From the NCBI GenBank assembly GCA_000165345.1, contig CM000431.1:192001-256000 (forward strand): a DNA stretch of 64,000 nt, written 5' to 3'. Position 1 is the stretch's first letter. Each line of letters begins with the position of its first letter. A model generated the notes under the pieces. That model was not told where the DNA came from. It saw only the letters and a program-made list of their open reading frames with translations, and did not search any database. Of the stretch, positions 3,384-26,066 are shown in pieces. Made by a program: the position numbers and the translations under genes.

Positions 3384-3395
3384 TTGGCGGGAAAG
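3384..3395 (+). promoter_or_regulatory. E2F-like GC box TTTGGCGGGAAA about 250 bp upstream of the 547..3138 gene
   Basis: Exact string tttggcgggaaa in an otherwise roughly 20% GC spacer. E2F-type GGCGGGAAA boxes are reported as over-represented upstream of Cryptosporidium genes. Its function here is inferred. Confidence 0.35.
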
Positions 3396-3602
3396 AGTGG
3401 TCTATTAAATAATTGAATAGGAACTATGGCAAGCAGAAGTTAAAAAAAAAGTGAGAATTGAGATCTAAGAAAACTAGCCATAAAATGGGGCTTTTTTTTT
3501 GTATAATATTGTAGATGACTATGTTAATTTTGAGCTTTTGAGAGTTTTATTTTGATAATTTTATGATAAGACTTGAAGAAGAGCTAAAGCTATATGCATA
3601 AT

Positions 3603-6251
3603 TCACACTATGGCGGTATTGTAGTAAACTCCGTCATTAAAAGAGCATTTAAGGTCAATTTCAACAGACTTTACCATCATTTCGCTGTCATTTGAATTTG
3701 TAGAGAATGCAATAACTCCCAATTGGGGATTCTTTAATAATGAAGCTCCACCACTTCCGATTACATTAGTAATGGAAACATCAATTTCAAAGGAGGATTC
3801 CCTGTCTACAACGAATGGGACAGCTAGAAGAGTAGGAGGGATAGATTTGTCAGTTGTGTACTTTTGGGTAGGGTTATCAAAAAAGCTTTGACCTTCAACA
3901 GTAAAGGAGGAGTTCCAGTCGAATTTATCCATGAGGAAAACTTCAAACTCTCCATTAGCAGTGAACTTAGAGAACTCTATTTTTGCTTTAGCTGAGGTGA
4001 TAGTATTTAGACAAGGGACTTTAGAGAAATCGAATGCAGCTAGAACAACACTGTTTAACTTGGCAGTTGCAACTGTGGAAGTGGAGCTCCAATTGGTTTT
4101 AGTAAGTTCTCCAAGCTTCAGATTTTTGAGTTTAGTCTCAAAGCTCCCTCCAGATATGACTCCATTAGAGAGGGAGGATCCTGGATTCCATTTGATCTCC
4201 ATAAAAGGTAGAGCTAGGTTTATATCTTGACTTGAATCCTTAGATTTTGGAAAACCATAGAATGTGATAAGGCCTAGATTAAGTTTAGATTCGTTGATTG
4301 CTTTTTTAACCAGATCTAATACATCAACTCTGGTTGTCCCTCCAAGCTTAAGCTTGAAATCCTTGCTTGAGATTGCTGTTAAATCGTTTGAACTGGTTAA
4401 AGTGGAAGTTTTTAGAGTCTTTACAATACTGAGGGTATAATCGAGTGTTTTGTGGGTTTCAGTTAAGCTGTTTTCATTTTGATTTCCATTTTCGCCAGAA
4501 TTTGAGCTTGAATTTGAGTTTGAGCTTGAATTTGAGTCCGAGGTTGAATTTGAGTCTGAGTCTGAGGTATCTATGTTTTCTGAAGAGGCATGTAATTTCT
4601 CTACAATGGTAATATTCATTTCTTGTAAACTTTCAGTGGTGATGAAAGGTATAGAAAACTGTGAGACAAATGCAGAATTGCCAGAAATGGACGTTTTATT
4701 TGCTTGAGTGATATCTTCAAAACCTAATGATGAATCATAATTGACAGCTTTTCCATTACTATCAAAGAAAGAAGTTTCAACAGAAGCAATATTTGGGTTT
4801 GAGAAGACTTGCGTGTTAAGATGATCCATAGATTGGAAAGTTTCAGAAGGATCAAACTGATATGTGATTTTGGCTTTGTTGAGAGTAAAGATCGCTCCTA
4901 CGTAGTTTTCTGGTAGAGATAGACTAATGAATACATTCTCAATAGCTAATGTTGGAGATTTCTGGAATAGCCGTGTAATATCAACAATTAGGGTTTTAAT
5001 CCCAGATTCTAGAGATAGTGGTACAGATATAGAGTTGATTGGCTTCTCAAAGCTTTCTCTAAACTCTTTGTAATTTAAATTAGTAATGGAGAATGTTGGC
5101 TTTAGAAGAGAAATTTGGATATCTGTAACAACTTGCTCAGCTGATTTAAATACTGAGATAGGAATGTATATTTTGGCACTCTTGATAGCAAATACTACTC
5201 CAGCCAATTGGAGTTGGAATCCAAAGATTCCTATTGCATTAGTAGATTGAAGGGAAGTAATTTGAACAAGGCACTGTCCTCCGAAGGTTTTTGGACAATA
5301 ATCATTGAATCTAGCTTTAAGCTTATCATTATAATCTATGATAGATCTTCCAAAAACTGATGATGTCCTAACTTGAATATACTTACTCTGTTGAATGGCC
5401 TTTTCACCAATTCCTCCAAATTCGTAGATTGGAATCGTATCCACAGCCATGTAAAACCTAGCAATAGCAAATACATCCATGCTAAGGACAACTTGAGTAG
5501 AAGGAGAAGAAGGTAAAACCATGATAGATATTCGACTTAACTCAAACTCGTTGGGTAAGTAACTGAACAATCCAACAATATCAATAGAATAAAAAGTTTT
5601 ACCTGGAATAATATTTTGTTCAATAGAATGGAAAGAAGATCCTCTAAGTATTGGAATAGTTTCTTTCCCATCTTCTATTTTTTTTGTTACTGATACCAAT
5701 CTAACACTTATTTTGGAATTAACTTTGGGATCTTCAGTTCTAAAGATTACCACAAATTTGTTAATGAGTGTAATACTTGGTATTGCGGAAGTATCAAAAG
5801 TATATATAGCTGAACCAAGAGCTACATTTTCTTTGGACAGAGACAGTCGAATATTAGATGATGATGATTTATCATAATACTTAAAGTCAGTAGATATTGG
5901 ATATTGTTCACAATCAAGATTTGGACATATATCTGGACTATAAACAATCCCCTCAGCTGATATACATCTAATTAGATATTCATTTGAGACTGAATTATAT
6001 GGTGAAAGTGGGAATAAAGAATTATAGTCTGAAAAAGTCTTACTATTCAATAGATCTCCAAAAATAGTACTAACATTAGCTTTTGAAATGTCAATAGGTT
6101 CATCCCATGAATCTACTAAAGCATCGTTAATTTTCTCTCTTGACAATAAACTTGTTGGATCAAATATTCCAGAATAATCTGGAGCACCTTCTACAGCAGT
6201 AAACAAGACTAAAAACGGGACTATAAGTCCTGATAATAGTTTTTTTCCCAT
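3603..6251 (-). CDS. Hypothetical secreted Ser/Asn/Asp-rich glycoprotein, 882 aa
   Basis: ORF with an ATG at 6251-6249. Signal-peptide-like N-terminus MGKKLLSGLIVPFLVLFTAVEGA. Internal acidic and Ser-rich block DTSDSDSNSTSDSNSSSNSNSSSNSGENGNQNENS, encoded by an imperfect 12-bp repeat at about 4490-4570. No TM or known domain recognised. Confidence 0.6.
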   Translation of the reverse strand: MGKKLLSGLIVPFLVLFTAVEGAPDYSGIFDPTSLLSREKINDALVDSWDEPIDISKANVSTIFGDLLNSKTFSDYNSLFPLSPYNSVSNEYLIRCISAEGIVYSPDICPNLDCEQYPISTDFKYYDKSSSSNIRLSLSKENVALGSAIYTFDTSAIPSITLINKFVVIFRTEDPKVNSKISVRLVSVTKKIEDGKETIPILRGSSFHSIEQNIIPGKTFYSIDIVGLFSYLPNEFELSRISIMVLPSSPSTQVVLSMDVFAIARFYMAVDTIPIYEFGGIGEKAIQQSKYIQVRTSSVFGRSIIDYNDKLKARFNDYCPKTFGGQCLVQITSLQSTNAIGIFGFQLQLAGVVFAIKSAKIYIPISVFKSAEQVVTDIQISLLKPTFSITNLNYKEFRESFEKPINSISVPLSLESGIKTLIVDITRLFQKSPTLAIENVFISLSLPENYVGAIFTLNKAKITYQFDPSETFQSMDHLNTQVFSNPNIASVETSFFDSNGKAVNYDSSLGFEDITQANKTSISGNSAFVSQFSIPFITTESLQEMNITIVEKLHASSENIDTSDSDSNSTSDSNSSSNSNSSSNSGENGNQNENSLTETHKTLDYTLSIVKTLKTSTLTSSNDLTAISSKDFKLKLGGTTRVDVLDLVKKAINESKLNLGLITFYGFPKSKDSSQDINLALPFMEIKWNPGSSLSNGVISGGSFETKLKNLKLGELTKTNWSSTSTVATAKLNSVVLAAFDFSKVPCLNTITSAKAKIEFSKFTANGEFEVFLMDKFDWNSSFTVEGQSFFDNPTQKYTTDKSIPPTLLAVPFVVDRESSFEIDVSITNVIGSGGASLLKNPQLGVIAFSTNSNDSEMMVKSVEIDLKCSFNDGVYYNTAIV

Positions 6252-6442
6252 TATTTAGATAATAAGTATTCTCGTTTTTTCTTCTTTTTTCTTCAATAAA
6301 AAAACTATCTTGTATTATATTTCACAATTTAAATCCGTAAAACCTAGCTATTTGATAATAAATCACTTAAGATTTCCTTTGCTCAGATCAAGATTGTTTT
6401 AAATCTTTTTTCTGTATTTTCACACAATTCTACCTAATTTGA

Positions 6443-25580: not shown

Positions 25581-25842
25581 ATCTTATAAAGTTTTTAATC
25601 AAATAAAATTTTTAAGTCCAAATTAATTATATTTCTATTTTAATTACCCTAAATAAACTTTGTCTACTTTCTCATTTTTTAAAAATCAACCCAAATTTTC
25701 TACTTATATAATCCATAAATTCAATTCTAATACTTATTTTTATCACATTATCGTTATTCCAACCCGCTTACCCCCCTCTTCTTCTTACATGCCCAAACAC
25801 TTTCTTTTTATTTACATGCAACCAGTACCGGTATTATTTACT

Positions 25843-25852
25843 AGCGCGCGCG
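25843..25852 (+). promoter_or_regulatory. GC box AGCGCGCGCG with flanking ACATGCAA motifs and a TATA-like GTATAAATTG, 160-250 bp upstream of the giant gene
   Basis: ctagcgcgcgcgtccaattgctgc at 25841-25864. acatgcaa at 25814-25821 and 25883-25890. gtataaattg at 25900-25909. The ATG is at 26067. Confidence 0.25.
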
Positions 25853-26066
25853 TCCAATTGCTGCAAATACTCTCTTACTTGACATGCAATAGCCAGTACG
25901 TATAAATTGTGAGGAAAGGACAATAAATTAGATGTAAAAGTTTAAGAATTTGATAGCTGTGAAAGAGGTAGTGTAGAATAAAAGTAGGTAGAAAAAGTTA
26001 CATTATAAGAATAAATTCAGGTAAAGTGAAAACTTTGCTCGAGTTTGAGATTAGGTAGAAGGTAAA

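Follow-up and report, generated by a model that had tools for sequence, protein, structure and literature searches.

Conserved GC-rich and CATGCA boxes upstream of genes on Cryptosporidium parvum chromosome 3 belong to known E2F-like and ApiAP2 motif families

From our analysis of a 64,000-nucleotide stretch of DNA (hereafter, the window), the GC-rich and CATGCA boxes upstream of its genes are real, evolutionarily conserved promoter elements, and they are members of the E2F-like and ApiAP2 (TGCATGCA) families already described genome-wide for C. parvum. Since these motif families were previously published genome-wide, the finding is a correct rediscovery; the small increment over prior work is a genus-wide footprint and a fixed distance to the ATG. 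The window is from Cryptosporidium parvum chromosome 3, and five of its proteins match those of C. parvum Iowa II/ATCC without a single difference, which bears out the guess of Cryptosporidium made in an initial annotation. The observation in that annotation (boxes present, placed, and recurrent) was partly confirmed and its interpretation of the boxes is supported. Every string that it cited was found in the window, and the spacers measured 21-30% GC instead of the roughly 20% it had given. The boxes had been picked by eye.

Motif identity and enrichment in non-genic DNA

The E2F-type core GCGSSAA occurs seven times in the window and all seven copies are non-genic (binomial P = 2e-7; non-genic sequence makes up 11% of the window). 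The expected number was 0.49 in a first-order Markov simulation of the spacers and 1.11 in dinucleotide shuffles of the whole window, and none of the 500 simulations or 100 shuffles reached seven. Similarly, 14 of the 30 CATGCA copies are non-genic (1.44 expected; P = 1e-6). The enrichment against shuffled controls that had been proposed as a check was found within the window, and the words of the boxes head an unbiased ranking of k-mers of at least 50% GC by their occurrence in non-genic versus genic parts (CATGC, GCGGG, GGCGC, CATGCA, GCGGGA, GCATGCA, and GCGGGAA).

Oberstaller (2013) described motif 3 (DTTGSCGCCH) and motif 4 (TTTGGCGGGAAV) upstream of C. parvum genes (PMC3734150). In the window, TTTGGCGCC is a perfect motif 3 and TTTGGCGGGAAA a perfect motif 4, while TGCATGCA and ACATGCA correspond to the AP2_1-family motifs 1, 7, and 9; the proposed comparison with published motifs thus gave exact matches to the upstream families 1, 3, and 4 (PMC3734150). 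The consensus, the organism, and the location upstream of protein-coding genes are identical to those of the published E2F-like motifs, multiple copies occur per promoter in either orientation, a ribosomal protein gene (L7Ae) also carries them upstream, as published, and nothing essential differs. Conservation had not been reported beyond C. hominis and no clear positional pattern had been found (PMC1779779; PMC7840661), whereas here the conservation is genus-wide and the boxes occupy a band of -100 to -400 from the ATG. AP2 domains bind TGCAT and TGCATGCA in vitro (PMC4117751), and the AP2_1-type sites of the window have the same TGCAT / GCATGC core, enrichment in non-coding DNA, and co-occurrence with E2F boxes, although the promoters mostly carry the partial (T)ACATGCAA of published motifs 7 and 9 instead of the full TGCATGCA. 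Two labels in the initial annotation had to be corrected. E2F/DP boxes were taken as a general apicomplexan feature, whereas, within the apicomplexans, both the factors and their motif are peculiar to Cryptosporidium (PMC12246861). The term "G-box-like" was applied to TGCATGCA, which is the AP2_1 ApiAP2 site and belongs to a different family from the G-box, G.GGGG in this literature.

E2F-like motifs were reportedly first noted by Bankier and colleagues in 2003 as over-represented non-coding words. TGCATGCA serves in vitro as a binding site for the C. parvum proteins cgd2_3490 and cgd1_3520 and for Plasmodium AP2-Sp, and is the TRP-2 motif in Toxoplasma; the apicomplexan G-box G.GGGG is bound by the ApiAP2 protein cgd8_810, and the AP2_2 motif is CACACA. 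The canonical eukaryotic E2F/DP site is TTTSSCGC / TTTSGCGCSAAA (structure of Zheng and colleagues, 1999), and plant sites are TTTCCCGCC and TTTGGCGGG. Like this site, the boxes have a central CGCG-type or GCGG core with T-rich and A-rich tails, are nearly palindromic, and lie in the proximal promoter, often paired. Unlike it, the Cryptosporidium motif lies upstream of a large fraction of all genes (it occurs in 161 of 200 expression clusters; PMC4117751), the genes here are without an evident cell-cycle role (an ABC transporter and secreted/membrane proteins of unknown function), and most of the E2F partners known from animals are reported absent from this parasite (PMC3734150).

Placement and conservation at individual promoters

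The comparison of orthologous spacers covered as many as eight further Cryptosporidium species or assemblies, down to about 55-58% protein identity. The boxes stand out as conserved islands about 150-335 bp before the ATG, and at that protein identity they have changed far less than the spacer sequence around them. This cross-species conservation of the boxes adds independent support for a promoter-element function. The distance to the ATG is constrained despite differing spacer length (e.g., -335 in a 1.57-kb spacer of C. xiaoi). The E2F-like boxes cited initially lie 193-287 bp before the ATG, and the positional bias held when checked over about 70 gene starts of the window and related loci, with 36 of 39 upstream matches in -400 to -101 and none in -100 to -1. 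The E2F core was retained in 6/6 species at g1 (0.20 expected), 6/7 at g2 (0.40), and 7/7 at g5 (0.62), and the AP2_1 site in 9/9 at the ABC gene (1.91 expected for CATGCA, alignment A2), 7/7 at g5, and 5/5 at the giant gene, counts which overstate the statistical weight because species comparisons are non-independent samples. The claim that almost every promoter-side spacer holds such a box was too broad: of the eight promoters in the range, five have one and the other three show no E2F-like box in the 400 bp before their ATG. No E2F-like box was found within 400 bp in the window for the papain-like protease gene (ATG at about 12014, minus strand) or the GST-like gene (8540).

Table 1. Positions of boxes and related elements in the window
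Element	Position	Strand	Context
E2F-like box TTTGGCGGGAAA	3383-3394	+	~245-256 bp upstream of g1 ATG (gene 547-3138, minus strand)
E2F-like box TTTGGCGCC	6443-6451	+	~193 bp upstream of g2 ATG (gene 3603-6251, minus strand)
Palindromic G-box-like element, GTGRGCCCCAC on g2 sense strand	6477-6489	-	26 bp upstream of g2 E2F box (g2 sense strand)
TGCATGCA	7159-7166		Flanked by the 3' ends of a converging 5S rRNA gene pair
E2F-like box GGCGGGAA	7832-7839	-	Between 5S rRNA genes 2 and 3
TACCGGTA palindrome + TTTACATGCA (AP2_1-type)	12575-12592	+	Between divergent protease and ABC transporter genes
CCGCC-N6-GGCGGGAGG, seemingly an inverted pair of E2F-like cores	12617-12636	+	268-287 bp upstream of ABC transporter ATG (12904)
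TTTTCCGGCGCC, cited initially	17765-17776	+	Upstream of g5
CATGCA (AP2_1-type)	17779-17784	+	Upstream of g5 (18063)
E2F-like box GAGCGCCAA	17797-17805	+	264 bp upstream of g5 ATG
E2F-like box GAGCGGGAA fused to CATGCA	17826-17840	+	235 bp upstream of g5 ATG
Promoter module AAAGGGTGAT, GGTACACAC, ATAGGGGC, TGTGTGTAAG (CACACA type)	21386-21448	+	g6 promoter; no E2F box
TTTACATGCA-ACCAGTACCGGTA: AP2_1-type site + CCAGTACCGGTA element	25811-25833	+	Upstream of 11,696-aa (giant) gene
AGCGCGCGCG, degenerate occupant of E2F-like box position	25843-25852	+	Upstream of giant gene
Near-invariant 32-nt block TTACTTGACATGCAATAGCCAGTACGTATAAA with second CATGCA	25875-25906	+	Giant-gene upstream spacer
E2F-like box AGCGGGAA	62066-62073	+	322 bp upstream of alpha/beta-hydrolase gene (62389)
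Two TGCATGCA palindromes, 14 bp apart	63798-63819		Convergent 3'-3' spacer

The g1 box, present as cited but one base off the 3384-3395 first given, ranks in the top 1.3% of its spacer for conservation (alignment A4). At g2, GGCGCCAAA is retained in C. meleagridis, the chipmunk genotype, and the assembly LoganA, the C. ubiquitum variant GGCGCCATT falls outside the strict pattern, and the position is occupied by GGCGGGAA(C/T) instead in C. ryanae and C. felis; the boxes stay with g2 in C. ryanae even after a synteny break that gives it a different upstream neighbour. The G.GGGG match at g2 is kept in 7/7 species against 1.55 expected (alignment A5). At the ABC gene, eight species share an unchanged GCGGG and an almost unchanged CCGCC, both in the top 2% of spacer conservation, and TACCGGT in the same spacer is common to the window and species as far away as C. 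felis. The pair satisfies the strict GCGSSAA in only 3/9 species, its right box departing from the canonical consensus both in the window (GGCGGGAGG) and in distant species, where it reads GCGGGGT, GCGGGCT, or GCGGGTT.

The spacer of g5 contains the box GAGCGGGAA, with GCGG.AA invariant in 8/8 species (top 0.3%) and the adjoining ACATGCAA kept in 6/8, together with a conserved second box, GAGCGCCAA, whose GCGC is invariant in 8/8 (top 4%), and the CATGCA at 17779-17784, which is moderately conserved and retained in most species. The initially cited TTTTCCGGCGCC is present, but at the 78th percentile of the spacer and unconserved beyond the closest species it is probably not a constrained element. 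The promoter of g6 (21618) has an E2F core in 0/6 species and G-box and CACACA elements instead: AAAGGGTGAT is G-box-related in other species (alignment A6) and CACACA/TGTGTG is kept in 6/6 at about -150 to -180. The G-box and AP2_2 CACACA families account for these conserved boxes and for the g2 element at 6477-6489, all absent from the initial list.

At the giant gene, the AP2_1 site is the full TGCATGCA, as in the published family, in 4/6 species, and its CATG and GTACCG columns are invariant (alignment A3). AGCGCGCGCG is itself unconserved (47th percentile) and aligns with GGCGGGAAG in C. ryanae, GGCGGCAAG in C. xiaoi, CCCGCCAAA in C. ubiquitum, and GCGCGCCAAC in LoganA; the box in the window, GCGCGCGTCCAA, departs from the canonical E2F consensus. 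The block TTACTTGACATGCAATAGCCAGTACGTATAAA has a mean column identity of 0.93 across six species (top 0.7% of the spacer), and conservation is nearly continuous from about -250 to the ATG.

Sites outside protein-coding promoters

Several sites taken as promoter-side are not. The one at 7158-7168 falls between two converging 5S rRNA genes, and CATGCA-type sites occur in the equivalent spacer of C. meleagridis and C. ryanae only, an inconsistent conservation. The next ATG is 943 bp away from the CATGCA at 61446. Those at 63756-63764 and 63797-63820 lie in a spacer (63649-63928) that is 3'-3', because the minus-strand gene ends at 63929 and the plus-strand gene at 63648, and that holds no protein-coding promoter. 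All three perfect non-genic copies of TGCATGCA in the window are in these two places, outside protein-coding promoters. Because some boxes sit in 3'-3' spacers, they are an unreliable guide to gene orientation, for which they had been offered as support. Two E2F-like boxes had been overlooked (7832-7839 and 62066-62073), and the spacer holding the former, between 5S genes, has an E2F-like box in every species examined, at positions that are not alignable. That several boxes are off the canonical consensus and some lie where no protein-coding promoter exists counts against reading them as E2F promoter sites.

Candidate factors and alternative readings

We favour, at a probability of roughly 0.78, the reading of the boxes as C. 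parvum cis-regulatory promoter elements of known families, E2F/DP-type and AP2_1-type, in conserved per-gene combinations. TTTGGCGGGAAA, TTTGGCGCC, GAGCGCCAA, GAGCGGGAA, and the CCGCC-N6-GGCGGG pair would be E2F-type sites, most likely bound by the parasite E2F/DP winged-helix heterodimers, whose occupancy we infer, inside a nucleosome-free region just upstream of a presumed transcription start. ApiAP2 factors, cgd2_3490 and cgd1_3520 among them, would recognise (T/A)CATGCA(A) as AP2_1-type sites. Each gene would have its own combination of two to four boxes (E2F, AP2_1, G-box, CACACA), which has kept its place some 150-335 bp upstream of the ATG ever since the diversification of the genus. 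According to the literature, E2F and DP genes are present in the parasite genome and the motif families are over-represented genome-wide. Among the motifs of sporozoite ATAC-seq peaks E2F ranks first (bioRxiv 10.1101/2025.01.17.633476), E2F motifs being dominant in such peaks (Xiao 2025), and E2F and AP2_1 motifs lie at most 100 bp upstream of lncRNA starts (PMC7840661). Nevertheless, most regulatory components are without experimental confirmation according to a 2025 review (PMC12246861).

E2F binding in Cryptosporidium is putative (PMC12246861), and the GC-rich boxes could be functional and yet recognised by something other than E2F/DP, such as another GC-box-binding factor, or act as nucleosome-excluding or boundary elements in AT-rich DNA, the likeness to the E2F consensus being coincidental or partial. 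In many cases nothing more than GCGGG or GCGC is invariant and the A/T tails vary, the 5S rDNA cluster contains boxes too, and the ATAC-seq association fits an open-chromatin role whatever the binder (bioRxiv 10.1101/2025.01.17.633476). We consider this unlikely, as the full 12-nt E2F consensus is present in the boxes with the strongest conservation (TTTGGCGGGAAA, TTTCCCGCCAAA, TTTGGGCGGGAAC), no apicomplexan genus other than Cryptosporidium retains E2F/DP or has the motif over-represented (PMC3734150; PMC12246861), and E2F1 and E2F6 matrices were recovered by motif comparison in independent studies (bioRxiv 10.1101/2025.01.17.633476). That the boxes are transcribed and act as 5'-UTR RNA elements in stability or translation, not as DNA binding sites, is very improbable. 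The transcription starts of these genes are putative, and the near-continuous conservation of the giant-gene region suggests that it is partly transcribed, but the motifs are palindromic or nearly so, GCGGGAA is in sense for the ABC gene and g5 and antisense for g1, and according to published studies E2F and AP2_1 motifs precede mapped lncRNA starts and fall within ATAC-seq peaks (PMC7840661; bioRxiv 10.1101/2025.01.17.633476). Least credible is a functionless chance or compositional feature of AT-rich spacers. The motifs are short, were chosen by eye, and include the unconserved box at 17765-17776; this reading is already contradicted by the non-genic enrichment of GCGSSAA beyond every simulation and shuffle, the recovery of the same words by the unbiased ranking, their retention against diverged flanks, and the conservation percentiles.

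The CCGCC-N6-GGCGG palindrome at 12617-12633 had been presented as a clean candidate dimeric factor site. The palindrome is present, is unique in the window (0.01 expected), and has conserved arms, but it seems best taken as a pair of E2F-like boxes in inverted arrangement. That it is instead a site of its own kind, serving a separate homodimeric factor, is unlikely. The inverted-repeat geometry is kept in 8/8 species with a spacing of 5-7 nt, and the right arm is without the A-tail of the E2F consensus in 6/9; against this, the right arm GCGGGAAG of chipmunk genotype I, LoganA, and LoganB has the E2F core, and inverted E2F-like pairs of other geometries occur at unrelated promoters, namely TTTTCCGCC-AATCA-TTTGGGCGGGG upstream of the L7Ae gene (locus L012) and the tighter, outward-facing GGCGGGAAAATTTTCCCGC upstream of g1 in LoganA. 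Such varied pair geometry argues for modular boxes over one fixed dimer site.

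Motif families and their enrichment in non-genic DNA

The window is 30% GC with long, intronless ORFs, and five of seven tested proteins were identical to Cryptosporidium parvum Iowa II/ATCC proteins, whose _3g670-type locus tags place them on chromosome 3. The right-hand gene lies ~256 kb into the 1.1-Mb chromosome of one assembly.

Genes and ORFs of the window (g1, g2, g5 and g6 are ORF handles)
Feature	Coordinates	Strand
g1	547-3138	-
g2	3603-6251	-
5S rRNA gene	6832-6951	+
5S rRNA gene	7405-7524	-
5S rRNA gene	8085-8204	-
GST-like gene	8540-10288	+
Papain-like protease gene, split	~10658-12014	-
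ABC transporter	12904-17664	+
g5	18063-21200	+
g6	21618-25580	+
Giant ORF, 11,696 aa	26067-61157	+
Alpha/beta hydrolase	62389-63648	+
Convergent right-edge gene, 3' end only	stop-side end 63929	-

The initial annotation had listed GC-rich and CATGCA boxes upstream of start codons. Every string it cited was found in the window, the sole shift being TTTGGCGGGAAA, which lies at 3383-3394, 1 base to the left of the place given, and comparison with published motifs identified the boxes as motifs 1, 3 and 4 of Oberstaller 2013 (PMC3734150). The consensus of the E2F-like family (TTTSSCGC / [A/T][C/G]GCGC[G/C][A/T] / TTTGGCGGGAAV) is present in the window, with a full match at 3383-3394, a match at 6443-6451, and matches to the E2F core (GCGSSAA) at 17797-17805, 17826-17834, 7832-7839 and 62066-62073; 12628-12636 (GGCGGGAGG) and 25843-25852 (GCGCGCGCG) match only partially. 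From their sequences, we infer TTTGGCGGGAAA, TTTGGCGCC and the CCGCC-N6-GGCGGG pair to be candidate E2F/DP sites. The full palindrome of the ApiAP2 family AP2_1, TGCATGCA, occurs at 7159, 63798 and 63812 and, within a coding region, at 21698. The AP2_1-type sites of promoters (12587, 17779, 17835, 25815 and 25883) read CATGCA, with the TGCAT core on the opposite strand and without the full GCATGC; the core in protein-binding microarrays is [T/C]GCATGC[A/G]. The name "G-box-like" given to TGCATGCA is wrong, as the apicomplexan G-box consensus G[T/C/A]GGGG (PMC3734150, PMC12246861, PMC4117751) is absent from it; genuine G-box matches lie at 6477-6489 and 21429-21434.

With the consensus cores from the literature set as patterns in advance, all seven GCGSSAA matches in the 64 kb fell in non-genic DNA, which makes up 7.1 kb (11%) of the window (binomial P 2e-7), against 0.49 expected from first-order Markov simulation of the spacers and 1.11 from dinucleotide shuffles of the window; seven was never reached. 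Similarly, 14 of 30 CATGCA copies were non-genic (1.44 expected), and TGCATGCA occurred four times against 0.38 expected, three of them non-genic. We also ranked k-mers by non-genic versus genic counts, restricted to words of at least 50% GC and excluding the telomere-like repeat (1-546), because a ranking of the whole window was swamped by A/T runs and the telomere-like array at 1-410. CATGC, GCGGG, GGCGC, GCGCG and GGCGG came out on top, followed by CATGCA, ACATGC, GCGGGA and GCGCCA, and then by GCATGCA and GCGGGAA. As this unbiased ranking recovers the words picked by eye, the eye had chosen a real signal. Genome-wide over-representation of the E2F-like motif in C. parvum has been reported (PMC3734150).

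Conservation and distance to the start codon

The ABC transporter and g2 served to anchor the retrieval of syntenic loci from C. meleagridis, C. sp. chipmunk genotype I, C. ubiquitum, C. felis, C. xiaoi, C. ryanae and two Logan assemblies (SRR31860986 and SRR31861040), referred to as LoganA and LoganB. Mean column identity of the spacer alignments was ~50-60%, and the boxes stood as islands above that level. The E2F-like sites behave as sequences under purifying selection, with the exception of 17765-17776, where TTTTCCGGCGCC had been proposed as an element and is not conserved. Upstream of g5, all eight sequences share the GCGC of GAGCGCCAA (17797-17805) and the GCGG.AA of GAGCGGGAA (17826-17834) without change, the GCGGGAA stretch is among the most conserved 0.3% of the spacer, and the adjoining ACATGCAA is kept in six of eight. 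Upstream of the ABC transporter, GCGGG does not vary and the CCGCC arm hardly does (both in the top 2%). The TTTCCCGCCAAATGATCTATTC of g1 is retained from C. parvum to C. felis and is variant in C. ryanae, and g2 retains a palindromic G-box-like element and an E2F box, even in C. ryanae, where g2 has been relocated beside a PP2C gene. At the giant gene, almost no variation is seen in the two CATGCA sites and a 32-nt block, and the AGCGCGCGCG of the window is aligned to GGCGGGAAG, GGCGGCAAG, CCCGCCAAA or GCGCGCCAAC in other species, which is indicative that the position (25843-25852) stays occupied as its sequence turns over.

Because MAFFT misplaced the LoganA box in the g1 spacer alignment and the C. 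felis box in that of g2, the presence of motifs in each promoter was additionally scored without alignment against an expected count. These counts agree with the alignments and indicate that every gene retains its own motif signature. AP2_1 is conserved at the orthologous promoters of the ABC transporter, g5 and the giant gene; the TGCATGCA at 7159 was present in some species only, with no consistent conservation.

Alignment-free retention of motifs at orthologous promoters
Motif	Promoter	Species with motif	Expected
E2F core	g1	6/6	0.20
E2F core	g2	6/7	0.40
E2F core	g5	7/7	0.62
AP2_1	ABC transporter	9/9	1.91
AP2_1	g5	7/7	1.09
AP2_1	giant gene	5/5	0.51
G-box	g2	7/7	1.55
CACACA	g6	6/6	0.74

The LoganA and LoganB loci have 47-49% GC, unusually high for the genus, versus 30-40% in the other species; the ABC transporter of these assemblies shares 79% identity with the C. 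parvum protein, and they retain the same promoter boxes despite the shift in composition.

Around ~70 gene starts, which are non-independent as many are orthologues, 36 of the 39 upstream E2F-core hits lay at -400 to -101 with a peak at -300 to -201; there were none in the last 100 bp before the ATG and only two in the first 600 bp of coding sequence. The distance from the ATG is kept despite changes in spacer length (-335 in the 1.57-kb spacer of C. xiaoi; -288 and -318 in the 733-bp spacer of C. ryanae). Since the distance is unchanged in much longer spacers, it is tied to the downstream gene and not to the mid-point of a 450-bp spacer. Other statements of the initial annotation need correction: the spacers measure 21-30% GC rather than roughly 20%, and the boxes, said to mark almost every promoter-side spacer, are found, as E2F-like boxes, at five of the eight promoters in the range and are missing from the other three. 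In place of such a box, g6 has G-box and CACACA elements, and the GST-like and protease genes have no E2F-like box within 400 bp of the ATG in the window.

The sites at 63756-63820 and at 7159, listed as promoter-side, lie between two converging genes and between two converging 5S genes, respectively. The boxes therefore cannot be used blindly to orient genes. The convergent 3'-3' spacer at 63649-63928 (280 bp) contains two perfect TGCATGCA palindromes 14 bp apart as well as GCATGGCGC. E2F and AP2_1 motifs have been reported upstream of antisense lncRNAs (PMC7840661), and by analogy with Li et al. 2021 the TGCATGCA pair (63798-63819) is a plausible candidate promoter for antisense non-coding transcripts.

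Candidate factors and promoter organization

The palindrome at 12617 (CCGCC-N6-GGCGGG) had been described as a clean candidate site for a dimeric factor. It is present as a single copy in the window and conserved. In three species the right arm is GCGGGAAG, and inverted E2F-like pairs of other geometry are found upstream of the L7Ae gene (TTTTCCGCC-AATCA-TTTGGGCGGGG) and upstream of g1 in LoganA (GGCGGGAAAATTTTCCCGC). The palindrome is better read as two inverted E2F-like boxes, and a separate dimeric factor appears rather improbable.

Enrichment, conservation, positional constraint and orientation independence of the boxes are observed here. E2F/DP and ApiAP2 proteins would occupy the boxes within a nucleosome-free region that immediately precedes the start site, and this occupancy would set the expression of each gene; proximity to the start site is suggested by PMC7840661, the distance measured here being that to the ATG (-100 to -400). 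Two E2F (cgd1_1560, cgd6_1430) and two DP (cgd7_3650, cgd8_1850) genes, all outside the window, are present in the genome and are unique among apicomplexans (PMC12246861). Of 200 expression clusters, 161 have E2F motifs upstream (PMC4117751), and E2F is the top motif of sporozoite ATAC-seq peaks (bioRxiv 10.1101/2025.01.17.633476), an indirect readout with regard to binding. The AP2 domains of cgd2_3490 and cgd1_3520 bind TGCATGCA in vitro (PMC3734150, PMC4117751), and ApiAP2 binding at the AP2_1 sites of the window is putative. Conceivably, with a probability of roughly one in four, the boxes are a genus-wide core-promoter grammar of fixed position and not gene-specific switches, with E2F/DP general and ApiAP2, G-box and CACACA stage-specific. 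Under such a grammar, E2F/DP would determine where the nucleosome-free region and start site fall, ~100-300 bp upstream of the ATG, in a genome that would have no other strong core-promoter signals.

Neither the motif families nor their interpretation is new, and the initial annotation is essentially a correct rediscovery; because the families, their abundance and the likely factors are published, the window adds nothing new in kind. Earlier comparative work was confined to C. hominis and gave no positional pattern (PMC1779779); this comparison is uninformative because the intergenic DNA is 95% identical. Within the collection of papers searched, nothing relevant on Cryptosporidium phylogenetic footprinting was found. 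Coming from a handful of promoters, the footprints across the genus and the constant distance to the ATG are therefore a modest and expected addition: at six or seven chromosome 3 promoters, the boxes persist as islands as far as C. ryanae and C. xiaoi with their distance to the ATG kept. This supports function and points to particular sites, among them 17797-17840, 3383-3394 and 12617-12636, as targets for mutagenesis in transgenic parasites. How Cryptosporidium controls transcription is poorly understood and difficult to address by experiment; among apicomplexans, E2F/DP is the regulator that most sets the genus apart.

Further conserved blocks and repeats

Upstream of the giant gene, the 32-nt block TTACTTGACATGCAATAGCCAGTACGTATAAA (25875-25906) is near-invariant in six species and far exceeds a single factor site; with 25811-25833 it makes a direct repeat, CATGCAA..CCAGTAC(C)G(G)TA, the GC box lying between the two copies. 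The palindrome TACCGGTA (12575-12582, 25826-25833) adjoins CATGCA at the unrelated ABC transporter and giant-gene promoters, is conserved at both, and is absent from the published list of 25 motifs (PMC3734150). As a general motif, TACCGGTA / CCAGTACG was rejected, since five more loci (~ten promoters) gave no further non-genic copy bar the orthologous ABC site. The 32-nt block and the CATGCA...CCAGTAC(C)G(G)TA / TACCGGTA composite of these two promoters could be an undescribed cis-element. Between the promoter block and the ATG of the giant gene (25990-26066), a conserved CAG|GTAAAGT ... TTAG|GT arrangement looks like a short 5' UTR intron. Conserved GATC blocks lie just downstream of the E2F boxes on the gene sense strand, at 3373-3383 (GATCTATTC, after the g1 box) and 17861-17876 (AAGATCAAAAAAATAA, after the g5 box); both are similar to "unknown motif 15" of the published set (GAYCTMD; PMC3734150) and could mark the start-site region.

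The 5S cluster (2-5 copies) adjoins the GST-like gene in the six species whose region could be examined, even where the left-hand neighbour differs. Inside it, 7786-7917 carries the Pol II-type boxes TTACATGCAAAAT, GGCGGGAA (7832-7839, minus strand) and AACCCGCCAC, which may mark an unannotated transcript or an rDNA regulatory or boundary element. E2F and TGCATGCA boxes were rejected as conserved parts of the cluster: E2F-like boxes lie between 5S genes in all species but do not align, and TGCATGCA is patchy.

Just beyond the 3' end of g1, positions 1-410 form a degenerate tandem array (unit ~13 nt, GCCTAAATTCCAA; super-unit 52 nt) with the core CCTAAA, the complement of TTTAGG, the hexamer of the Cryptosporidium telomere repeat. 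An AMP-binding (acyl-CoA-synthetase-like) gene is next after g1 in C. meleagridis, C. ubiquitum, LoganA and C. ryanae, and the locus is ~190 kb from a chromosome end; the array therefore appears to be interstitial, telomere-like and specific to this lineage. The giant ORF has internal repeats ~1.9 kb apart, with identical 35-nt strings at 36110, 38024 and 43814, and a CTA x 360 trinucleotide tract at 46231-47311; its length is 11,621 versus 11,696 aa among C. parvum assemblies and ranges from 11,369 to 11,957 aa among species.
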